Source of the DNA: Obrimoposthia wandeli
Taxonomy: Eukaryota
DNA length: 64,000 nucleotides
NCBI GenBank assembly: GCA_977020255.1
Contig: CDROCS010003291.1
Span: 62,001-126,000 of the forward strand
Direction of reading: 5' to 3'
The position numbers and the translations under genes are program-made. Under the pieces are notes generated by a model. It worked only from the letters and a program-made list of their open reading frames with translations. It had not been told where the DNA came from and made no database searches. Of the stretch, positions 13,450 through 52,800 are shown in pieces (within the stretch, counting starts at the first letter, position 1; each line of letters opens with the position of its first letter).

Positions 13450-14400
13450 ATATTTCTTTGTATTTCAACATTCAGTAGAGGAAACGAGATAATATTTCAT
13501 TCAAATCTTTGTAAATGCCTCTGGTAAAAAAGTAAAACTTTTATTTGCTGAAACAAGAACTAAATATGTACCAGAACTGTTTTTTCCGAGGGTTATAAAA
13601 TAGATAGTGAATATAATTTAGGTAAATTCATAATAAGGAAATTCAGTAAATATTTATATAAATGTGTTACATTAGAAAATAGAAAGCTGACGTTAACGGT
13701 AAAAAGTATAACACGAGTTTTCTTTGATGTTTAACACTTAAATCTCGGTTTATCAGGTCATGCTTTTGAAACCTATATAGTAAAAACTATAGAAGGTAAA
13801 AATCAAGGGAAACATTTAAATGCTATTAATCAGATATATATATTTATAGGAGTGTAAGTACAACTTTTGAAATCAATATGGATATCTGAAGGTCAGACCA
13901 AAATTGGCAATGTAATCGAAATTCGTATAAATCAGCTGATGTATCTTCTCGTTAGTTTGTCATCTACAAACAATTTTGAAGGAAATATTAGGGAAGATTT
14001 CAGTTAATTAATTAATTCCACATACAGAACCAAGACAATTTTAAAATAATAATAGAAGCTTATATAGTAGAAGCCAACAGGATGGTGACTACCATATTTT
14101 ACTGATAAACAATATGGATCTTGTTGAATTAGAACATTATCTAGATTTGACTTTCCTATATTGCAGACTCAGTCGATTTATCTCGAGGTTAAGGAAGGAC
14201 CACATATGATCTAATTATGCCAACTTTTAAGAAGCATGTACTTAATCAACTTGATATTGTTCTACCAGAAGTTACTGCTTGAATTAGAAAATGTAAATCT
14301 GGTAAAAGTCAAGAAAGTAGCAGATTCAAACGACAAAAAGCACAAATTTGCTATAAAGTTGAAAGAACAATATTTGAAAATTGAGTTGTGCCAAAACTGA
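13450..14400 (+). mobile_element. Degenerate Gypsy-like pol relic
   Basis: Stop-riddled frames, including HVLNQLDIVLPEVTA.IRKCKSG..RFKRQK, resembling an integrase zinc-binding region. Confidence 0.35.
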
Positions 14401-14849
14401 ATTGTGCATTTTTAATAAAGCTTCACTTGAAGAAATATTTATAGCTAATTTAATCAGAAACAACTTTAACCGATTAAGAATTGAATATTAATGGTTCCAA
14501 TAGTGATTATTTAGATTTTAATTATTGATAACGAATAAATCTATGTCTTCTTTATTCTAACACTTATAATATACAGACTATCACACTTCTACTACTGCAG
14601 CTTTGTCTGTCTATCATATAGCTAGACATTTACATGCACACGCAAGGTAGTTTAAAGTGCGTAACAATCTTCTAACTTGGTCTTCAATTTGTCCAATTCA
14701 AATCGACTAATTACTAATTGCTGATTAAGCAAATATTTATTAATCTTCAATTAGTCATCAACAAACCCCTACCATGATCAGACCTAATCATCAATCAAAT
14801 CAACATAATAAGACATAATTTGAAAAAAAACACTCATGTTCTCAACTAA

Positions 14850-37100: not shown

Positions 37101-37473
37101 TCTTTAGTTGTCAATAAGTCATATTAGTTAGATCATCTTTCAACAGGGCGGAGCACCAATTCTTTCAATCAAGTCAAAAAATGTCTTTTGGTAACAAATG
37201 AATTATTGGTCAGGGTTATGACAATCACCGACATACACGATCATCGAACCTGACTCATATTGACTTTTACGTTTGAGGCACATTGAAGTTACGTATGTAT
37301 TGGAGGTGGAAGCCGAGCACAATAGGATAAGATGTATCATAAGTCAAACGTATCAGAGTAAATTACACTAATTGTGATGTTCTGATCAGTCGGACTGACA
37401 AAATGAATTAATTTAATTTAAAATATATCTAATAGTCAGATTTTGGAGTTTACAACTGCAGGTTGTTTCAAAC

Positions 37474-37845
37474 CTGTTGCACGAAGGCGGCAATGGAGAA
37501 CCAGACGCAGTTGAAGAAGGTGAAGTCGCGCGTGACAGCAGCAGAATGGCCTGCAGATGGACCCGATGTCGAGGAGAAATGCTCATTGGCGGGTTGGCCG
37601 GAAGAGGCGGCTGAGTTGGCGCAAGTGCTGCCAGTCGTATCAGCAGCGGTACTCCACTCATAGGGACTGAGACGCGCGATTACGTAGAGGCCGCAGCTGA
37701 CGACGAGACAGGCTGCGATGTAGCAACTCCAAACGGGATATGAGAGTGGCCTCAGGAAGCTGAAGATCCCCCCCTTTTTGGGACCCGGTTTCTTGATCAT
37801 TACGCTGAGACCGAACATCACAAATGGCTCTGAGAAGTGCACTAC
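37474..37845 (-). CDS. iGluR exon (S1 end, M1, intracellular loop, M2 up to the Q/R site, 124 codons)
   Basis: Acceptor ctctcag|GTA, donor CAG|gtttga. Encodes FSEPFVMFGLSVMIKKP, the hydrophobic M1, RLSPYEW and FNCVWFSIAAFVQQ. Confidence 0.93.
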
Positions 37846-40800
37846 CTGAGAGTGCATGATATCGTCAGAGCACACATTTCCTCTAATCATTTCGTACCAA
37901 TATGAAATTAATTAAAATATAAAAACAAAAATTTCTCTAAAATATGAATAAATTTTTACTAAATATTGCTTCAAGGGAGGCCTGCAACTTTAACGCTCGG
38001 AATTGAATAAAACTTTGAGTATAGATAGATAAAAGTAAAATATTATAATTTCTCGAGACTTTACCGTGAAAGCTCAAAAGAAGTCTGTATTTCAATAAAT
38101 GAAACGCTAGGAAATCGTTTGGACTAAATATAATTATTTAATTGAAAAGAAAAGAAATGATAAATTATTTTAAGTATAATAATTCTGAAGTATATATTAG
38201 AATATATAATTTAACTTGTAACTTATGAAAAATCTAATATTTATAGAAAATTAAATTCATCTTATTACACAATTTATAATAAAATATAAAAACTTTGTTT
38301 TAAATTTGCTCTAAATGACAAAAATTAGAAAATGTCTTTGTCAGAATTTAAGATTTTCAAAAGTTAAAAGTTTAACGCTCTTATACTGAATTTAAAATCC
38401 AAATAAAATAAAGTGAAACTACAAAAATTCTAAAGGAATCCTGTTTTAATATTTCACAAACAACATGGGGGAGGACCTCCAATAGATTGGCATATAAATG
38501 TAGTTGTAAGAAATAATATGAAACATTCCGAAAAGTACAAAATAATTCTTAATTGGAAGAGTTTGTCTAAGACCATCTTCAGTTATGAAAAGATCCTATA
38601 ACTCGATTGTTTAGATTGTTAGTACACCTATACAATCAATAAAGAAAGATTAACGAGAGAGTTCAGACAGTGTAGTAGGGAAGGTGATTTTGTATGGATT
38701 ATTTCTCTTTCAAGAGGCTTTTATCCCATAAACTTATTAAAAAAAATTATATCAGAAATTAGTTTGAATTGACTCAGTGAATCAGTTGTTACATTTATGG
38801 AAATTAATTAATTATAAGTATGAAATATAAAGAGTAAACTGCTCCAAAACACAAGTGAAATATTATGTAAGATATTTCCATACCAAGTGAAATTAACATC
38901 GTAAAATATATTGGGATGCTTAAATCGTGCAAAATGGACCACACAATCATAACACAATGTGTGATCAAAGATAAAAACAATTTAAATTTAATGTCACAAG
39001 CGCTATGCTTTGTACTATGTTTCTTCACGTATTGGAAGGTAGTAAAATGTTGGCTTAAAATTATTTAAAAAAAAAGATTTTCAATATACATTTTTCTATA
39101 ATTCAATCCTTTGTAATTTAAAAAAGACTGTCTGAATTTTTTAATGTCTTTGTGTTCAAGTTTATACTATTTTTGAAGTGAAGTTAATAAAATATATACG
39201 TTTAATAAATTAACGTTTGAAATAAACTTCAGTATCATATACGTATAAATGAAAAAACAAAAGTACTTTAATTCCGAGAAATATTCTTAAAGTAAAGATA
39301 TGTGGTGTGTAAAAATACGAAAAGAAGTTTAACTATCGGTTGCAAATTGAAGTTATTGGAGATTGTTAAATTCAAGGTGAAACCAAATTTACAATTTATA
39401 GGGATTAATGATTGAAACTAAAAAAAATCTTCATAGTAGTTATTTTATGTGTCAAGAATTTAAAAAAAGTAAATTTACTATAAGCTAACCTGATATTTAT
39501 GATTTGCTTCATAATCGTTTAAAAGTGTACAAAAACACTTAGGTCATGCGAGGGGTTTTTTAGAAAGTTTTCCTATAAGTAAATTTAAAATTTTAAACAC
39601 GGGGTCATTGTTAATTAACTAAAATATTTGGAGGACGCCATTAACAATCAACGCTCAATTGTTTACTTTCTTCACAATTATTGCATTGTCACTGCTAAAT
39701 AACCTGCAGACTTGAAGCTGTATTTGGAGAGAAGGCAATAAAGAGAACCGCGGTCTATGACTGGGTGAGCCGAATAAAGGAAGGGTGTGAACCTTCATCG
39801 TCTTTGACAAATCGAAATGTTGAATCAGTCAAGGCTATGGAGGATGACAGAACATAGTTGTGAAACAGGCCTTGGTGTTGCAACAGTACACAAGATTTTA
39901 TACGAATATCTCGTGATGGGCAAATTAACTGATAACTACGGATGGAACCTGGCTGCTATATTACAATCCCAGGCCAAAAGACAAGTTACAGATGGCTTCG
40001 AAATGGAGACTCTGCCCTTGTCAAGATTATGGAAGTACCAAGTGCTGGGAAAGTAATAATATCAGTGTTTTGCGACTATTCTATCTACCAATGTAAGCTT
40101 TTAGGAGAGGTCCTAAGAAGACGATATGTGGAAAGCCTTCATACATCCCAATACTGAACAATGAACAGTAGCGTCTGTGGGAAGGAATATTGTCTCATCC
40201 TGCGTATTCCCCTGACTTAGTACTTTTTTCTCATTTGAAATATCCACTGTGAGAAATACGTTTTCCAGATCCGTAGAGGTTTGACGGAGATTTGCAAACT
40301 CCCGCACGAAGGTGTGAAAACTTTGAGGTATGTAAAGTGAATACATTGAACAGTTTACTCTTATAGACTTTTAACATAATATATTTTCAATGGGATTTTA
40401 CTATTAATAATACATTGCAATATTTAGAGTGGATACATAATTCTGTAATATAATACAGATTTTATTAATACCAGAAACTAAATTAGACGATTAAATATAA
40501 GTAAATTAGAGAGATCTAGAAAGATAATTCGGACATTTATTTACTGTACATGTTCTGAGACTGTTTTAAAATCTGACACGTGTTGTAGTCATTCACACAA
40601 AGATTAAGTTTGTATGATAAGAAACTGAATCACTAGTTGGTAAGTAGTCTAAAAGAAATTGAATAGAAATGCTTCCATAAGACTTATTTTCAATATGAAT
40701 TTTCCTGATTTTAATATTGTGACTTTTTACTGATTAATGTTTTCTAATTAAATACTGTAAAATTTCTTTATATACACTCAAGATACTAAAATATTTGAGG

Positions 40801-43800
40801 ATTATGACCAATGTCCCTTCTGTTCAGAGAAGCTTACTTAAGAACTTTGGAAAAATAACGTAAAACAAATCTGAATGAATCTGCAAATAATAACTGAGGA
40901 ATAAATGTCTAAGTCTACAATGTATACATAGCAAATATGCTTTTAAAACCGTGAATTAAGTATTATATTAATATTAACTTATGTGTTGTTTATAGACGAC
41001 GAAGAAATCGGCAAGTTCATTGAATGATTAAATTAGAACATGTATAATATCTCCGGGCTTTTATGCTTTTCTTGTTGTATCCAAATGGACTTAAACAAAG
41101 GCACACGAATAGCACCAAGAATTATAGGTTCTATTAAACTCGTGTATGTGTAAATTTCATTGCATGTGTTAGAATTGGAATTGTATAATTATTAAAATAG
41201 AATTAATTATAAATAGAGGAAATAAAACTTTGAAATAAGGTTAAAAAGGAATGAATAAATTAATAATTTTTTAAAATTAAAACAAAATGGAAATTGATAA
41301 GATCGGAATAAGTTAAGGACCTTGAGAGGTCGTGTGTTGTGTAAGTATATAAGATAATTTATATTATTAAGAAGGCCCTAAAAATATATATAATTTGAAG
41401 AAGTATTCGCAACTGGTAAAACTCAATTAAGGATAGCAAAAGTGATTTAATTTCTTGAGAACGAGACAGCAGTCTACCGACTAGAAAACTGAAGGTATAA
41501 TTAATTGAAAAATTCCATTTACTAATTACTTACCAGAACGGCGAGCGAAATTTATTCATTCTCAGGAATTTTGCATCAATCGAAAACAAGTTATAACAGC
41601 ATACATAACATGAGAGTATAAAAAGAGAAAACAAAAAGCTCAAAAAGGAAAAAAAAAAGAAGAAAGTCTTACAATCGTTAGATGAACAACCCAGGCCAAA
41701 ATTAGAAGATCGACCAGTGTTTGAATTGACCGAGGTAAGGCACGAAAACGACGTTAGAGAATTTAAGATAATTACTGATTATCCAGGAAGATTGACCAGA
41801 TCGAACAAGCGAGGACCACCAGATATTGGAGGAAATCGCTGGACAGAGATAGATCCAACTAAGCGGATCTTTTGAGGACGGAAGCTTGTGACAGCCGGAC
41901 TACGAGAATCGATCGGACGGAAGCGAGTATCAATAACCGCAGATAAATCTAGGTAAGTAAATTAGAAACATTGAAAAAGAAAGTTATATACTTTGTCAGC
42001 TTAAAGTAAAAGAAAGTTACATACTTTGTTAGTTTAAAGTAAAAGAAAGTTATATCCTTTATTAGTTTAAAGTAAAAGAAAGCTACATACTTTATTAGTT
42101 TAAAGTAAAGAAAGTAAACATATTTTATCAATTGAAATTAGCAAACATTGGAAAAGAAAGTAAATTTATCTTAAATCATTTGGGGTTTGACGAGTCAAAG
42201 TTAAATAGGAAACTAACAACTAGACAAGAGCGTAAAACTCGATCTCTAACCTACTAGACAGAAAATTAAAATCGATACGTTAAGGACATCCTGATTTATG
42301 TGAAATTGATTAAGTGTCATAGGATTAGTTGTCTGTAATTTTTAGCAACATAGTTTAGTGTGAAATAAAGAATAAACGTTTTCTACAAACAAGTAGCGTT
42401 ACCTTGAATTAACCCACCACGAATCAGGACGATATCAACTCCATTGTACGCCACACTACAATAAGGACACCTTGTAATACCTTGTGCACACAACTATGTA
42501 CACAATCCACCATACACTAGCACAAAAAACCTTCAGACTTGAAACTAAATTAAGTAGGATAAAACCTAATTAGGCCACATACATCTGTAAGCCCTATTGT
42601 TACAGAACTCACATTGGGGGCCTCCATACAAGGATCTAGTTTCAAATAGAAACCCCAACACATGCATTTGACAATGTTGGAGTATTAGATGCCTTAAACA
42701 CTTGTTTTTTTTATTTTCAAAATCATCTTTTGCAAACCCGATAATTGTGGCTAGTGATTTATCTAAGATAACTTTAACAATATTTTGTTTCAATTTGAAT
42801 TGAATCAATTTATTAACTAGTTTAAAATTTTCAAATACATTTGGTAACATTGTTTTAAAAGTTTTTCAGATGCTTTCACTATCTGGAAAAAGAAAATCAT
42901 TGGGTATTGAATATATTTTCCGCTCACTTTTAAAGAATCTGTTTTCTATCTTGAATGTAATTATTAGATACTTAATTTGTTTATCCATAATTCCTGAAAC
43001 CACATATTTTCCTTTATTAGGTTCAGTCGGAAATCCACATTGTTCTGCAATAATCTAATCATTAAAAACTATTTCAAAATTATCCCCTTGTCCTGCAATT
43101 TGAATTCGATTCTCTTTATTTAAAAAGATTGTGAAATTATTCCCTGGCTTAATACGCGCCAAATCTAATTATCCCATATAAAATTGTAAAGTTACAGCAG
43201 CTACTTTATCAACTTCTTGTTGAGTAATATATTCAATTTTAGTTCCACTTTGAATTGATAGATGATAGTTATTGAAAGCAAATTCAGTTAATTTAGCTTC
43301 CCAATTTCCAGGAAGAAGTATTGGATTTTCTAAATAAAATATAAATTTGCTAGCATCATTATCAGGTCTTGTTTTTGGACAGATATTGCTAGGTAATACC
43401 ATATAAAAATCCTTCCTTCTATTTGCGTTGCTAAAATTCAACTAGGTTTAGAATATCCATGCCATTTTACTAAATATTGTTTATTCATTCAACGACCTTT
43501 AGTTTCTAAAATTTTTGTATTCTATACATTTCAGGTTTATCAACCACTTGTAATTCTTGATGATAAAATTTACCTTGTAAAACCTCTTCATTTTTATCTT
43601 TCAAAATACACATTATCGGATTTTGACTATTGCTGATATCATGAATTTGAAAAACTTACTATTTTTTTTAATATTCTCACATAATCACTAATCTTATACT
43701 TTGGTTTACTCTTTTTTTTCCTTTTTATTTCTACTCATCCAAATTTCCTTTGCATTTTTATTTGAAACTTCAAAGGTCTTTTGCCATCTAAACTAGAATA

Positions 43801-46800
43801 TTCAGAATGGTTGTTTGCAGTAATAATTTTTGGTAAAACATCAATCAATTTTTATTACCTTGTATTGTAAAGTAATTTTTTATTCTTTCTCTTAAAGTTC
43901 GGGTAAATCTTTCAAATAAAGCTGCCTTGCATTGAGAATATACAGAATAGTGATTAATATTGTTTGATTTAAATAAAGATTTAACATGTTTGTCGTAAAA
44001 TTCTTTACCTTCATCAGTTTGTATATTTTCCGGTAATACATCAAGCATGTTATTTATTGCTTTACTCATTTCAATGCCTGTTTTATTTTTTACACCTTCT
44101 GCTCTTGAAAATCTACTAAAAACATATATGCAAGTTAAAATATACTTACAATTATTATTTGTTGATGAATATGGAATCATTTCCATCAAATCCAATTGCT
44201 ATAATGCATTATGGCCGTTTGTTTTATATGATTTTGTTGAAAATATCTTTTTCATCGGTTAGTTTAAGCTGTAAGCTAATTGATTTTTCAACCATTTCTG
44301 AGTCTCTTGTTTGCTGATTTTTATTTTCTTTGCTAATTTTGATACACCAGCATAACCAGTCGAATGTTTTGGGTCGAACCATATCAACAGCATCTTTTCC
44401 ATTACAACACGTTGAATTAAACAACAAAAAAGCTTTTTGTTGAGAACAACGAAGAAATAAAGTATACAATGCTACAATATACTTTGAATTGTTTTATTTT
44501 GTTTATATTGATTGATATTAAAATAATGAACTTCTCTTTCCAATTATGCTAGAATTGGGGCTATAATTGATAAAATACCACCAGATTGCTGAATAAATAT
44601 TTTACGTTTACCTAAATTAGATTTGGTATTTATTAAACGAGAAAACTGTCGTTCATACTTTTACAAAGACTTTGCTTTATCGCCATCATTAAGTTCACCA
44701 AATATTATTTTTATCAATACTCTAACCATATCATCAAATACAAAGGTTGGAAAAGATTTTAAAATTCAGATTCTACGATTGTTAGGCGACTTTAACAATA
44801 CATTAATATGTGGATTTGATTTTCTTTGAAACAAAACATTGGAAATAAATCTATTAACTTCTCTTCTTTCATGTGGAACAACAACCATTTTAAAAGCCAT
44901 TTTTGATTTACCTTTTTGAAACATTTGTTTATAAACAGTATAACCAATTGAGTTAAATAAATCTATAGATAAAATCATCATTACATTCTTGTGTAAAATC
45001 AATGAATAAATAACCATGTGTTTTCTTTCTAGCAACAAAATCAATAATGGTTTGATCACGTGGATTTTTAAATAATACCAAATATTGTACATTGATATTA
45101 CGTGTTCTATGAGCTCCTCCTCGATAAAATAAATTTAGTATGATAAATTTAACAGTGACTTTCCCACGACGAGCAATTTTAGTAAAAAGACTGTTAAAAT
45201 CTGCTTATTTATTAGCTTCCTGATACAAATCATCAACCACAATTACATAACCCTTTTTCAATCTGCTTGACCAATTCTGATCAAAACCATCAATTACTTT
45301 AATATTTTTTAATTTACAAAATGTTTGTTGAGTCAAACCTGCTTCTCCACTACCTCCTTGGTGCCAATAAATCCTTTTAAAAGATTGTTTAAATAATTTA
45401 CTTTTTAACAAATTACAAACAAAGAGTGTTTTTCCACTACCAGAAGGTCCTACCATCTGGTAAACTGCACTATTTTTTCAAAAGTATAATAATCTATTTA
45501 TGAAAAATATATTGTTTATGCTTCTTTCATATTTAACAATATATTAAATAATTTTGTTTTTTCTTCTTGTATAATATTTTAAAGTAAAACAAGAATATCA
45601 GTAAGTTAAAGAAAAATATAAGAAAAAGTCATAAAAATATATTAAAAAAACATTGGTGAGCAGACATTAATTTCCAGATTGTGCTGATTTGGGCTTCTTC
45701 ATTCTATTTGAATCCTTGTATTGATAATTCAACCAATCATTCTTGACCATCTTTAAAGTCTACTTTCTTTCCAAAACAGTTGAAAAAGTCTTCGCATTTT
45801 TTAAACTAGAGGGGTTTCTCCACTGTATACTTTGTAATCATTTTTTTAAAACATTTAGTTCAAATCATCTACATCTGATATTGCAATATCAGAAAGCTTG
45901 TAATTGAATTTGGCCACACTTATAGATACTGGTAGTGAATAGGTAAATATCCAACTGTTTTTTAATGTATTCATTCTATAATTAAAACATTCAAATGACT
46001 TTTTGTATTACATTTTGAGAAATGAAATGAATTTCTTTATATTAGGTTTATATATATTTAACTTCAACCAATCATATACATTCTTCAATATATATTATTT
46101 TAGATTTTAATTGATTTTAATTGAAGTTTGTCATTTAATGATTTAATACCTAAAATGATAGTCTTTCCAGTAGAGAAAAGATTTACACATAATGGGTTAA
46201 ACTTAATTAATTGAAGAGCAGGAAATAATTCTGGTTTGTACATACATGCTACTTTACGTGATAGCTTATGTAAATTTATTGATTTTCTAAGATTTATAGC
46301 TATTGTGATATATTGAATTTTATCAATAATAATCTTCAATGGTGTTGTTATAAATAACAATGGTGTCTTGCACCCCATAATTCTGCATCTACCAGTCTTG
46401 AATATCATAATAGTATAATCTGTAGTTTTGATTATATAATGTTTAGGTTTCCATGTGAAACATCTTGGAAAACAGTTCCTTTATAATTGATGTTGGTAAT
46501 CATTATTAACAGAAATAGATTGTAATCATAATCTTGTATCTATATATTCAGATAACTAAATCAATGAAACTTCCATTTATTGGCTCTATCTCCATGGTTA
46601 ATGATATACTGGTTCCATCAACAACGAAACAACAGTCTACGCCATCACAGTTAACATTACAACATCGATCAGAACAGTCGGGTTCTTTTGTTTTATGTAA
46701 ACTATACCTATTTTACCGTTTAAATGTAACTCATAATAATTGTCATATTATCATGAAACTATATTATAGGCTTAGACATAATGGCACTAATTACTATGTA

Positions 46801-49800
46801 TGTCCTCATTGTAATATATTTACAATTGTTAATTATGAAAATTTTTATAAGCTACATAAGAATCATTTATGTGATTTTAAAAGAAAAAAGTGTTCATATG
46901 CTCCGATTGGTAAGCCATCACTTAAGCGTAAAAATATATATCCAGCACTAATATGCCTACTAAATACGTATGTCAGGTTGGTTTTGGAGTAAGGATTGAT
47001 TTACATAATAGTCATATCATAATCACACATGATTTTATTGATAATGATGTGACTAAATTTTTTGTTCCTGATAGTATTAAACAGGAAATTGAGAATGTTG
47101 TTGATAGGATGGGTAAAGCTAAATTACAATATGGAGCGATTGTTTTATTTTAAAAGGATAATGGCGAAATGGAACAATGGTATTTTTCGTATAAAACTAT
47201 TGAGTATAATAATGATAGTTTGACTGACATATCTCAAACGTTAGACGAGAAAATTTCCATCTATAGTGAATTGAGTAGTGGATGACGAGTGTTGCGTATA
47301 TTGCTAATAACATTTACTTTAACAAAATATTGAGTGATAGTAGTTATATATATATATTCCTCTTGCACTATCTCGCACAAAATCAGTTGTAAACGTACGA
47401 AACTATGATTCATTCGGGTTTTTCTTTGCAATTCTCACATAACGTAATGAAATAATTGAGCGTTGTTATCGTGTTTCACATTATATTCCATATTTGAAAA
47501 TCTTCACGTATGATCCTAGTCAAATGCCAATGAATCTAATGGGATTTTGCCTACATTCGAAAAGCAAAAATACTTTCGATAAATGTTTTTAGTTATAATA
47601 TTGATGATGATTTTCAATGTAACAATGAAGATATTTTTAAACATCCTTTTGTTTATATTATATTTAAAAATGGTAATCAATTTGATGAAACTATTAATTT
47701 GCTACTGATAGAAAATGATAGCACATTTCCTTACTTATGAGTGATAAACTTAGATCATTCATTAAATATTGATTGTGATAACATTCCAATACGAATTCAG
47801 AGTAAGTGGTGTTCTTAATGCTTGCATGGTTTTATGAAGCAGAGTGCATATGATAAACATATTTAATTATATGCATTATATTTATTATCCGGATTTGTCA
47901 AAAACTATTGCTGTACAGTTTTTAGTATATGCAGATTTTGAATCATTGTTAGCACCGCATCATTTACATAAGCAGATTCATTTACCACCTGTTTAAAACA
48001 CCAACAATTAATAATTATTATCAGTTTGTAAGTAAAACATATATCCAGGATTTTCTGCAAAAATTACAAGATTTGTTAGAGGATAACGTTAAACGTTGGT
48101 TTGATGCTAATGCTCGTAGAAATATGCAAATAGTTAATGCTAATTGGCGTGCATATAATACATAAAAAACGTGTTATTTATGTAAAAAGGTGAATGAAAA
48201 ACTTATTCGTGATCATGATCTACATATAGCACATGTAATCTTTATCGTAGAGTGAGCAAAATTCCAACTTTACCAGTATTATTCCATATGTGCATGCCAG
48301 TATTATTCTATATTCCAGTACATGCCACATCTAAATTTAAATCATGGAATATATCATGTGTGCCATTATCGACAGAGAAGTTCATGGCTCTTATTGTAAG
48401 AACAAAATTCGGCATTTTACGATTTATTGATTCATATCAATTTATGAGTGATAGCTTGGCTCTTTTAGTTAAGATGATGCCTGATCTACTTTTATAGAGC
48501 CAAGAATTTCCAACTAGTCAATTGAAATCAAAAGGAATATTTCCATATAACTATCCTACCTCAGAAAACATTTTGAATGGTATTCTACCCCTGTGACTGA
48601 TTTAGACATGGAAATGTTTGATACATTAAATTGTAAAACTTTGTGTGATTATATGTTAGTTTATTTAAAATTAGATTTATGTTTGCTTGCAGATGTTTTT
48701 GAAGCATTTAGACAAAAAGAATTAGAAGAAGACGGTTTAGATCCTGTTCATTTCTTTTCTGCTCCTGGCTTATCATGGGCTAGTGCTTTGAAAACATTAG
48801 ATTATGATGTAAAATTGCTGAAAGATCCTGAAATGTATATATTTTTTAAGAGTGGTATTCGTTTGTAAATAAGCATCATGTATAGTCTTCTGAAACTGTA
48901 GATTTATTGTACATAGATGTAAATAACTTATATGGTTGGGCTCTTTCGCAACAACTACCACATAGTAGCTTTAAATGGATTGATGATGAATATTATCTTA
49001 TGTGCTTGCTGTTTGAGATTGATGAGGATGATGATGAATATGATTATGTATTGGAAGTAGATATGGATATAACTGCAGATATTCATGATAAATTGGATGA
49101 TTTAACTATAGCTTCAATTAAACAGTGTCCATCAAATAGTAAAGTAGAAAAGTTACTCCTTACTCATGAACCAAAGAAGAATTATATTATTCATTTACGT
49201 ATCCTTCATTTTTATGCTTATCTTGGAGTAAATGTTGTTGTGTACATCGAGCTATTCAGTTTAAACAAGCTAGTGTTTTTAAGAAGTATATAGACTACAA
49301 TACGGAAAAATGATCAGAGGCTGTTAAATCAAAAAATTCTTTTTAAAATAATTTTTATAAACTTAAAAACTGTAGTTTGTTTGCAAAAACAATAGAAAAT
49401 TTGAGGAAGCGGTTAAATGTAAGAATTTGTAACAACTCAAAGAAATTAGCATGTTTAAGTTCTAAACCTATATTCAAGAGATCTCGTGTTGTAGTTGATG
49501 ATTTGGTTGTTGTTTTAATGAATAAATAAATGGTTTATCTTGATAGACCAATCTATATAGGACAGGCAATTCTTGATTTATCTAAATTGCGTATGTATCA
49601 GTTGAAATATGAAGAACTGAAGAGATATCAAAGAATGTTTAATTGCAGTATTAAAATAGTAGCTGATGATACTGACTCATTTTTTCCAGAATGTGTTCGT
49701 GTTAACTTAGATAATCAATTGCTACCTAAAATGATCTCTGATGATTTGTTGGATACATCAAATTATCCAGATTGCCATCCTTTATATATATATTTTTTAA

Positions 49801-52800
49801 AATAGCATGGTAGGTTAATTTAAGGATTAAAGCGAAGGTTGTAAATATAAAGAAGGAGTGTTTTTGAGACCTAAATTATACTGATTGAAATTTAATGATG
49901 ATACAGAAAATCATAAAGCGAATTGAATATCGAAAAATACTAAAATTCCTCATTCTGCCTATGTAAATACGTTTAATAGTGGTGAAATATTTAAATTAAA
50001 ACAAGAAAACTTTAAAAGCATAAATAATCAGATTTTCACTATTGTAAATAACAAAGTAGTCTTAGGTTCAAGTGATGATAAGCGGAAGTGGATAAGCTTT
50101 AACGAATCAAAGACATATGGTCACTATTCTCTCTTATGATTACAATATGTTTTTTGTTGTTTTATTGTATATATATTTATGGAATTTTTAATGTGATTTA
50201 TCTATCTCTTTTTTATTGTAATATATTAGAGAAAACTTTTGATTTTAATAATGCAGTTTTAATAATTGAATTATATGTAAAATTAAAATTAATTAAAAAA
50301 TAAAAAAATAAAAAAAATTACCAGTTCAAATTTTATAAATTCATTGACAAAGTTTTTAAATGAGGATTCCTTGCTACTCTCCATGAATATTTTCTGCTTT
50401 GTGGATTTATGACTATATTTGTCATCTAACTCCCGTATAAGGCCATTATATCATATATGTCAGTTGTCTTCTTCAATATCTGATGCATTTTTACTGCGAT
50501 GATCCAAATAAAGGCATTCTTCAATCCTTTTGTATTCTTCAACCATTTCTTCTAAATCTCTGAAGTTATATTTAGATATTTTATCAATAATGTTTTCTTC
50601 GAGAGGACCATGTTTATGTTCGAATATCGATAGCCCGTAAGCTTCAGTTATGTTGAATTCAGTATAAAGTTGCTTGAAAACTGATATTTGAAACTTATTC
50701 ATAGGCATAATTTCTTTTTTCATCATCTGAAATTTCAATTGTTTTCATACTGGAGATTTGTGTACCATATGTGATTTCCTGTGCATCTTCATCCTGACAA
50801 ACGGTATCATACATTCGACATATTTCTTCATATGTAGGTTCCTATTCTTCTTGATCTCCAAAAAGACTAATGTTCTTCTTGTAAAGTTCTTTTTTTACCT
50901 TTAAAAAGCTTCAAATTCTTCTTATCGAGGAGTTGTTGTGCCATTGTGATTATGAAAATGTTTAAAATTGATAATGTTTAAATAGTTGAATAGTTATATT
51001 ATGTAATAATGATTCAGTAAAGAGATTAGTAAACTTAGAGCTGTTTGTCATACTGATATCTACTCATCGGGCGATGATATGTGATGCATAAAATGATGTT
51101 ATCATACGTATGACATCGTATTGTTAATATATCAATATCATTGATATATGTGAGAGTGATTGACGTGTGAGTCATCGGAAGGTGGGGGTGGGAGTAGTGA
51201 CCTAGAACCCTCACATCTATCTACTAATGTATTTATAAATAAAATGTAAGTCATTAAAATATTTAAAGTCACAAAAATTAACATTATTAACTTAATCGTT
51301 TATTTATTAGAAAAAAAATTAATTAAAAAATAATACATTGTTTTACTGTCCCAAAATTAAATAACCACCAATTTAAAATCGAGGAAATTTTAACTATTTT
51401 ATATAATTTATAGTTTTTTCGTAATTTCTGTATAAATATACATTAAATTGCCCAAAAACAATATATATTTGTAGAAGAAAAAGAGGTAATTCTTGATTCA
51501 GATACAGATGGAAAAGGTGCACGAGAAATAGGAAGAAATATCGGTAGATCGCACAATACTATTTCAATTTTTTCAAAGCACCATTCCAATATGGTAAAAA
51601 AAATTAAAACCAGGCAGAAAGTAGAAATTATCATAAAGTCCAAAAAGAACTCTTATTCATGACGTAGGAGTTCAAAAGTGATATTTGTGTCAAGCTGCCA
51701 ATGCACATTTTGACGATATTAGTAAATCAACTGTTCAACGTATAATGAAGAAGTCGTACTATACAACAGTAAAATTAATGAAGCGACTAAGTCTTTCTAA
51801 AGTGCAAAAATATATATTAATAGTGACAAATATCAAAATATGTTGGCTAATCATTTAATTCCCGTTTTTATCAATCAAATTCAGTGGTTTCAACAAAATA
51901 ACGCAACCCCACACGTCAGTAAATCAACTAAGCAATGGTTAATATCTCAAAATGTAAATGATTGGCCTGCGAATTCCCCAGATTTGAATCTTTATAGAAA
52001 ACATTTGGGAGATATTAATTCGATGTATCTATTTTTTTTAATAATTTAAACACTTTGGAAAATGATATTTTAAAGAACTGGAACGAATTGGATTCTGAAC
52101 TGTTTAATAAATTATATAAATCTTTGTCTTTTTAAAATTATTAAATGTGAAACTAACACTGTTTAATAAATATACGTATTTGATGTAATGCTGTATTTTT
52201 TTTGATACATTTAGTAACTTTTTTAATGAGTAGTTCTAAAATTTTGGGACAGGAAATTTTGTTTTTCTCTCATATTGTATTTTTTAAGAAATTTTTAAAG
52301 ATTAATGGGTTTGAAAAATTACTTAACTTTATTATTAAATAATATTTCCATAATATTTTTGTTAAAAAAGTAATTCTCGATATAAAACATATAAGTATAA
52401 TTGTGGTTTCAAAATTTTGGGACACAGTGTATGTATCAATAAGCTATTAATCTCAAATATGAAAATATTACAAATACTAACCTTGGCTCTTGCGAGATTG
52501 ATGGTGAGAGGAGCCACTGCCATATCAGCGTTACCGCTGAGAAGCTCACCAATCATACCATTCCAGATCTCAGATCCGTTGGCGTAGGTGCTGATCTTTG
52601 CACCGAAATTGTTATCGCGTACCAGATGGATTTCGTACTTGAAGCCGAGGATCTCTGCTGTGAAGTTCAGTAGATCCACACAGAATCCCTGACCAGATGA
52701 AATTTTATTAATACTGACAAATTATCTTTTTAGAAATTAATAGTCTTTATATTAGGTTGTACAATAAAAATGTTCGTTCTTAACAAAATCTAACATAAAT

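Follow-up and report, generated by a model that had tools for sequence, protein, structure and literature searches.

What does a TATA-binding protein (TBP) do in a Polinton? The question is raised by a 64,000-nucleotide stretch of the Obrimoposthia wandeli genome (assembly GCA_977020255.1, contig CDROCS010003291.1, positions 62,001 to 126,000; referred to as the window), in which a first-pass annotation had placed a TBP-like gene within a Polinton-like element, and it bears on the means by which the capsid genes of Polintons are turned on and on whether these elements act as independent viruses. The present analysis revealed that this gene is genuine and belongs to Polintons, among which it is conserved and widespread, and that its product is a member of the TBP family that fails several canonical features of TBP. 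In addition, a 7-base box, [T/C]ATAAAC, was found before the virion and packaging genes of TBP-bearing Polintons, which the viral TBP may use as a promoter of its own.

A TBP gene carried by Polintons

The gene was located where it had been annotated, on the minus strand between the genes for a packaging ATPase and pPolB (Table 1). Its open frame of 126 amino acids (positions 46103-46480) matched PF00352 with an E value of 1.6e-13 and a score of 50.7 bits (cut-off 22.9). Alignment with an unbroken natural copy gave three tblastn pieces (frames -2, -1 and -2), with two frameshifts, near positions 46455 and 46115. The full-length protein, read from unbroken natural copies, consists of 144 amino acids, which corrects the earlier description of a gene of about 134 codons with one frameshift. 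The copy in the window is a defunct relic. The element around it contains both pPolB and a retrovirus-like integrase in decayed form, which identifies it as a Polinton/Maverick; the ATPase is present in the window as well, the genes for the major capsid protein and the protease are present in sister copies, and the minor capsid label is inferred.

A search of the O. wandeli genome (1.35 Gb) yielded 150 scored candidates, all 150 of them TBP matches, which is a lower bound on the copy number. These copies belong to several Polinton families. Intact copies flanked by Polinton genes were found. Among 29 other copies that were fetched, the ATPase side was present within 1.5 kb in 28 and the polymerase side in 24, at least one of the two being kept in all 29. 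Similarly, elements picked via their capsid gene had a TBP gene nearby in five cases out of five. The major capsid label itself was checked on a metagenomic relative, the fold of which resembled the capsid proteins of iridovirus, PBCV-1 and mavirus (best E value 8.5e-16); a sequence search of the PDB with the capsid profile returned nothing, and it was the fold search that settled the label. At least four further TBP-bearing families occur in this genome; dozens of matches with almost equal scores in some of them are suggestive of recent spread. TBP-bearing Polintons are often situated within or next to another Polinton, which may belong to the same family or to a second one (L123, L127, L141, L151, L163 and L165).

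Relatives were retrieved from other sources too. A protein search with the unbroken copy led to 73 proteins out of 81 candidates, and nearly all of the best 150 matches listed in a profile search stood above the first cellular TBP (19 inspected). In metagenome contigs, 135 TBP stretches were confirmed, the best 80 of which were kept for locus analyses; eight metagenomic relatives scored 41-65 bits against PF00352. A Polinton core gene was present in 40 of these 80 loci, and in 28 of the 36 loci of at least 3 kb, counts with a few self-matches among them, as the core-gene queries were taken from the same loci. The gene set of TBP-bearing Polintons comprised pPolB, an rve-chromo integrase, an A32 ATPase, an adenovirus-type protease, a double jelly-roll capsid protein and, in some elements, PLA2, the gene order varying among the metagenomic ones. 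Two TBP scans of a viral contig collection gave no locus and one locus, respectively, and scans for capsid and ATPase genes gave none; the single match was a TBP of full length, the contig of which had no Polinton genes. Cargo seen at metagenomic TBP loci included a dual-specificity phosphatase (L035, 4008-4316), an ubiquitin-conjugating enzyme (L050, 225-719), a leucine-rich repeat protein (L063, 1918-3327), a KilA-N protein (L084, 7142-7999) and a RING finger protein (L095, 13315-13893).

For 48 pairs taken between TBP subfamilies, the ratio of nonsynonymous to synonymous substitution rates (dN/dS) was 0.16; for metagenomic TBP genes, it was 0.23 (83 usable of 1596 pairs). The TBP was therefore under selection at the protein level while the elements were active. 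Within the window's own subfamily, dN/dS was 0.83, hence almost neutral, as expected for decay after insertion. In a phylogenetic tree, 46 family rows were found on one side of a long branch (100/99), away from 15 cellular and other viral-type TBPs, and they did not group with the viral-type references. The tree was built on 45 of 170 family rows drawn at random and 15 references, with a midpoint root and a bootstrap that had not fully settled; with its long branch, midpoint root and few references, the donor of the Polinton TBP is not readable from it. Purifying selection, the separate branch and the Polinton setting bear out that this is a gene of the Polintons and not a processed pseudogene of the host.

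Fold and residues of the Polinton TBP

An AlphaFold2 model of the unbroken copy (61 rows; pLDDT 94) displayed a saddle, the first lobe of which was without both helices. All 144 residues aligned with yeast TBP (Z 13.9, rmsd 2.4), the next non-TBP fold having a Z of 6.6, and the displayed Foldseek rows with an E value of at most 0.001 were all TBP-containing entries (44 matches, among those listed). Herpesvirus proteins gave weak fold matches only (E values of 0.0036 or higher), and TBPs of large viruses were weaker fold matches. The identification as TBP, which had been made from sequence motifs, is confirmed by the PF00352 match and by the full TBP saddle of the model; a chance match to TBP was rejected. 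Identity to cellular TBP (yeast 7o4i_O, human 5fur_A and Sulfolobus 1mp9_B) was 22-30%.

Residues were counted in 171 homologues of 135-230 amino acids, in yeast numbering, the genomic context being known for a minority of them. F116, F190 and F207 were all kept in 164 homologues, in agreement with the earlier claim that three of the four Phe residues that enter the TATA box are retained. The fourth position of canonical TBP, F99, was Pro in 157 homologues and Phe in one. N69 was kept in 149 and P191 in 153 homologues. Acidic residues occurred in 162 homologues at both positions of the stirrup that we take to be the TFIIB-binding pair 186 and 188 of yeast TBP. Two acidic residues of the C-lobe are known to bind TFIIB (PMC7221094; this paper and the others are cited for the parts of their text covered here). 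Most of the remaining DNA face has been exchanged. Replacements were found as V122R (165/171), T124M (170/171), L205N (170/171), N159S/T (171/171), V161T/S (167/171), I194R (128/171) and V71N (125/171), and within the minor-groove set of N69, N159, T124, T215, L114, L205, V71 and V122, the residues N159, T124, L205 and V122 were replaced in all. Most replaced positions are listed as DNA contacts in a table of PMC12529657, and the altered-specificity mutant TBPm3 concerns positions I194, V203 and L205 (PMC1636458).

The N-terminal tail is indeed absent, the family consisting of proteins of 144-180 amino acids without it. As to the shortened repeats that had been described, this applies clearly to the first repeat, with 15 residues in the H1 region versus 25 in cellular TBP and 18 in the H2 region versus 31 (mostly 16-29 in the family), and not to the second repeat. 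Positions 133, 138 and 145 of H2 were gaps in 86, 110 and 168 of the 171 homologues, respectively; the basic H2 surface of the N-lobe is thus reduced. In cellular TBP, a basic patch on the N-lobe binds TFIIA, TAF1, Mot1 and Brf1/2 (PMC7221094). Longer members of 165-190 amino acids (P0239, P0243 and P0068; L084, L095, L100 and L106) keep both first-lobe helices in part; the family shows a graded loss of helices down to the form of 144 amino acids.

A box before virion and packaging genes

Box counts in the metagenomic loci were made on de-duplicated upstream windows, with the expectation taken from dinucleotide shuffles. The box [T/C]ATAAAC was present before 68 of 81 starts of virion and packaging genes, with 2.8 expected. 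This was the case for the ATPase (22/24), postATP (17/17), the major capsid protein (8/10), the minor capsid protein (7/13), the protease (4/5) and PLA2 (10/12). It also preceded orfPY (17/21) and orfC (5/5), and was rare before preMCP (1/6), orfA (3/16) and the TBP gene (1/56). A canonical TATA box was found before 29 of the 56 TBP gene starts, with 8.4 expected. The distance between box and ATG was 30-54 nucleotides in 78 of 104 sites, the motif being defined by its following C, and 253 sites were on the coding (TBP) strand versus 37 on the other. The counts agree with a modified TATA box such as the viral TBPs of the herpesvirus type possess, its role as a promoter being predicted.

In the O. 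wandeli genome, in which some copies were counted twice, the box occurred before 28 of 29 ATPase, 8 of 10 major capsid and 12 of 15 orfA starts. For postATP, the first count was 1/35, and a wider upstream window gave 5/8; the low count seems to be an offset of the upstream window, because the box in the copy under study lies about 100 nucleotides before the aligned postATP start. Within 12 kb, that copy has nine box sites, seven of them on the minus strand and two on the plus strand. Another, distant Polinton family of the same genome (PF21738; 91 capsid matches) had no TBP match in nine of ten stretch pairs, the match in the tenth adjoining an ATPase of the TBP-bearing family, and the box was present before none of its 54 gene starts. 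At the gene starts of this second family (L112-L131), T-rich runs give way to A-rich ones that end in AAAAATG. This differs from the box and may reflect a different transcription route.

A proposed late-gene switch and its alternatives

Fold, Polinton location, selection and residue changes of the TBP, as well as position, strand and distribution of the box, are findings of the analysis, and a prediction of binding, timing and partner can be built on them. It is proposed, with somewhat more confidence than doubt, that the TBP gene is read early from its TATA box and that its product binds the [T/C]ATAAAC box, docks TFIIB and starts Pol II outside TFIID/Mot1 control. In a first step, the host TBP would read the ordinary TATA box before the gene for the viral TBP. 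The latter would then bind [T/C]ATAAAC before virion and packaging genes, its rewired face (V71N, F99P, V122R, T124M, N159S/T, I194R and L205N) accepting the C at position 7. Yeast TBP variants select against C at this position, and TBPm3 does so at box positions 6-8, the 3' half of the box being contacted by the N-lobe (PMC1636458). The kept E186/E188 pair would dock the host TFIIB, bringing Pol II, and the trimmed N-lobe would free the viral TBP from control by TFIIA, TAF1, Mot1 and Brf. The viral TBP would act as a one-protein late-gene switch, and it is expected to prefer [T/C]ATAAAC over TATAAAAG or scrambled DNA. For the fuller version, namely a two-stage programme run by one protein of 144-180 amino acids in a widespread lineage of animal Polintons, with a private box before all virion genes and immunity to TFIID/Mot1, the case is evenly balanced.

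Nuclear transcription by Pol II fits, because short GT-AG introns are predicted in the TBP gene. These introns, of 36 nucleotides (L175 and L177, 122-157) and 38 nucleotides (L160, 4592-4629; L164, 6298-6335), occur in two other TBP-bearing families of O. wandeli and share one position in the gene, directly behind the Phe of the first lobe. The protease gene may begin with a mini-intron, as its ATG is followed immediately by a short GT-AG stretch (L145, L147, L148 and L161-L179). The first-pass annotation had suggested that host Pol II or Pol III is redirected to the promoters of the element, or that the viral TBP may compete with the host TBP. The box and the kept acidic pair lend indirect support to the redirection of host polymerase; Pol III appears less likely as a target, because the N-lobe H2 surface used by Brf1/Brf2 (PMC7221094) is cut down, and it was rejected as the main target.

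Several observations weigh against the late-gene switch. The DNA contacts N159, T124 and F99 of cellular TBP have been lost, and DNA binding by the Polinton TBP may, from its sequence, be weak or different. The box also precedes integrase genes (4/9 metagenomic starts) and some unnamed genes, and in O. wandeli it is missing or degenerate before the protease (1/7, and 0/10 in a second set) and the minor capsid gene (0/10, and 3/9 in a second set). Furthermore, 46 of 290 box sites are situated within 10 nucleotides before the upstream stop, where a polyadenylation signal would lie. The link between box and TBP is a single contrast between distant groups and not a test of co-evolution, both occurring together within one related group, and the PF21738 stretches may not span whole elements. 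Finally, binding by the viral TBP, start sites and expression are predicted, and no transactivator partner was identified.

An alternative that appears unlikely is that host machinery reads the box as a core promoter, either as a weak TATA box via the host TBP or through another factor such as a Forkhead protein, and that the viral TBP is engaged elsewhere, for instance in sequestering TFIIB so that transcription of the host is dampened, or in binding the element ends. The TFIIB-binding pair has been kept while several canonical DNA contacts have been lost, as this would have it, and ATAAACA fits RYAAAYA, which we take to be the Forkhead consensus. However, a TFIIB decoy needs no near-invariant new residues on its DNA face. 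Moreover, GTAAAC was hardly enriched (3 versus 1.2 expected), which speaks against a Forkhead factor, and TATAAAA or TATAAAG occurred in none of 114 windows, which speaks to some extent against a weak TATA box. The box is also strand-specific and fixed in distance, and the PF21738 family lives without it in the same host.

It is quite improbable that the viral TBP reads the box only as part of a larger complex encoded by the element, with for example the orfA product or a Cys/His-rich protein. Small unnamed genes flank the TBP gene in many elements, and ORF24 of herpesviruses needs partners (PMC6541308 and PMC12529657). Yet, no neighbour was common to all TBP loci, orfA, orfE, orfPY or PLA2 alternating beside the TBP gene, and neither a TFIIB-like Pfam match nor a polymerase for transcription was found in a scan of 75 proteins encoded at these loci. 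In addition, the acidic pair of the host type has been kept, which was lost in ORF24 and in many TBPs of large viruses. A TFIIB-family search of the O. wandeli genome returned exon-sized pieces only.

That [T/C]ATAAAC serves the gene upstream of it as a variant signal for polyadenylation or termination, with no relation to the TBP, is very improbable. Many box sites are near an upstream stop codon, and TATAAA and CATAAA are presumably minor variants of the poly(A) signal. But the box followed convergent gene ends in 4 of 32 cases versus 78 of 235 for tandem ones, a test that includes some spurious antisense frames, as three of the four convergent cases appear to be. Of 36 divergent starts, at which there is no end of an adjacent gene on the strand concerned, seven were preceded by the box as well, and the spacing of the box to the ATG and its defining C point away from such a signal. 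Lastly, a recently captured host TBP or processed pseudogene carried as passive cargo, which the broken window copy and the near-neutral decay of its subfamily would fit, has practically no chance and was rejected on the selection between subfamilies, the separate branch and the Polinton setting with its different gene orders.

Comparison with known systems

The Polinton TBP shares with cellular TBP (PF00352) the two-lobed saddle, N69, F116, F190, P191, F207 and the E186/E188 stirrup, and differs from it by its length, the missing tail, the short first-lobe H1 and H2, and the replacement of F99, V122, T124, N159 and L205. Among viral proteins, ORF24 of KSHV, a representative of the beta- and gamma-herpesviruses, likewise mimics TBP and has a DNA face of polar character (PMC12529657), with polar changes at V122, T124, V161 and L205 as in the Polinton TBP (Table 1 of that paper). 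Late promoters of these herpesviruses carry a TATT box before structural genes, which is read by ORF24 (PMC12529657 and PMC6541308), whereas the Polinton box is [T/C]ATAAAC. Furthermore, ORF24 is a multidomain protein of 752 amino acids that belongs to a six-protein complex, does not have the glutamates for TFIIB and itself makes the contact with Pol II (PMC12529657), whereas the Polinton TBP is a bare saddle of 144 amino acids with the acidic pair and three Phe residues rather than four. The architecture of ORF24, UL87 and BcRF1, with several domains, a Pol II-binding N-terminal domain and a six-protein complex, is not that of the Polinton TBP. By analogy, the Polinton TBP probably functions as a minimal counterpart of the late-gene TBP of herpesviruses, and would thus parallel their late transcription by an apparently independent route.

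The TBPs of Nucleocytoviricota have a diverged N-lobe as well, which would escape control of the Mot1 type (PMC7221094). Their TFIIB-binding positions have diverged and TFIIB homologues are encoded by the viruses (PMC7221094), whereas the Polinton TBP keeps the acidic pair. In four searched supplementary files of PMC7221094, the terms 'polinton', 'maverick' and 'adintovirus' were not found. For vertebrate Mavericks, eight core genes without TBP are listed in the covered text of PMC8097293, no introns are reported there, and virions had not yet been seen.

A like case is the TBP-like gene that appears as a label in the legend of Figure 5 of Starrett et al. 2021 (PMC8502044; preprint 10.1101/697771), for MELD viruses with adintovirus-like PolB, which are mid-size DNA viruses related to Polintons. 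In the covered parts of the paper, this legend is the only mention in the journal text, from which neither the virus that bears the gene nor its identity with the Polinton family is readable; an analysis of distribution, residues or promoters of the TBP was not found in these parts, nor was TBP among the labels in the readable text of Supplementary Fig. S2, which concerns animal adintoviruses. The claim that a TBP is new to Polintons holds in that no dedicated study was found in a literature search with subscription journals and Repbase outside its scope, and it is qualified by this label. Similarly, no paper was found that joins TATAAAC with Hoogsteen, TBP and TATA, and 'TATA' was not found in PMC11296320, PMC11161782, 10.1101/2023.08.22.554363 and 10.64898/2026.06.19.733378.

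If the two-stage programme is true, it would be the smallest late-transcription system of a virus, with a natural TBP of altered specificity, and evidence for these Polintons as autonomous nuclear viruses, beyond transposons. As both the protein and the 7-base box have been named, the proposal is testable biochemically or with a reporter. The current rules of TBP specificity would be tested by a natural TBP in which the TFIIB contact is kept, the DNA face is new and the regulatory helix of the N-lobe is absent; such a TBP could also yield a compact orthogonal pair of promoter and factor.

Other features of the window

The features of the Polinton copy are given in Table 1. For orfA, no direct tblastn match was obtained in the window and no function was found. 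The probable minor capsid gene is split by about 1.1 kb of DNA foreign to the family (41250-42350), unlike in sister copies, and to the left of the last box the copy breaks off without a major capsid or protease gene. The Cys/His-rich frame had no Pfam match.

Table 1. Features of the truncated Polinton copy, in positions of the window
Feature	Position	Strand	Basis or remark
Polinton TBP gene, decayed	46072..46503	-	144-codon family gene; PF00352 match and tblastn against unbroken natural copy
[T/C]ATAAAC box	46046..46052	-	After TBP gene, ahead of small orfA gene
orfA, small conserved gene, decayed	~45660..45990	-	Placed by synteny with other copies only
[T/C]ATAAAC box	45514..45520	-	About 35-40 nucleotides before ATPase start region
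A32-like packaging ATPase, decayed	44962..45477	-	Weak Pox_A32 match; tblastn 61% to metagenomic Polinton ATPase
[T/C]ATAAAC box	44927..44933	-	At ATPase end, ahead of next small gene
postATP, small conserved gene after ATPase, decayed	44553..44825	-	tblastn E 3e-22
[T/C]ATAAAC box	44501..44507	-	Ahead of integrase
rve integrase, decayed	43420..44438	-	PF00665 E 9e-05; tblastn E 1e-55
Probable minor capsid gene, 5' part	42692..43411	-	tblastn; label inferred from position
Probable minor capsid gene, 3' part	40994..41161	-	tblastn
[T/C]ATAAAC box	40988..40994	-	After minor capsid 3' part; copy then breaks off
Cys/His-rich open frame	46519..46992	+	Divergent from TBP; common to most sister copies
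pPolB, decayed	47085..50133	+	tblastn to metagenomic pPolB E 7e-144; relatives match PF03175
Truncated Polinton copy, approximate extent	40900..51250	.	Coverage by 20 sister-copy stretches; left part lost

Terminal inverted repeats are, together with a 6-bp target duplication, a feature of Polintons; the window's 25 longest inverted repeats included no such terminal pair, the copy being truncated on its left. The copy is probably situated in an intron of an ionotropic glutamate receptor gene, because exons of such a gene (Lig_chan) flank it on both sides (37471-37911 and 52365-52721, minus strand). A second Polinton fragment, more decayed and with pieces of capsid genes, is present at positions 13789-14522 on the plus strand.

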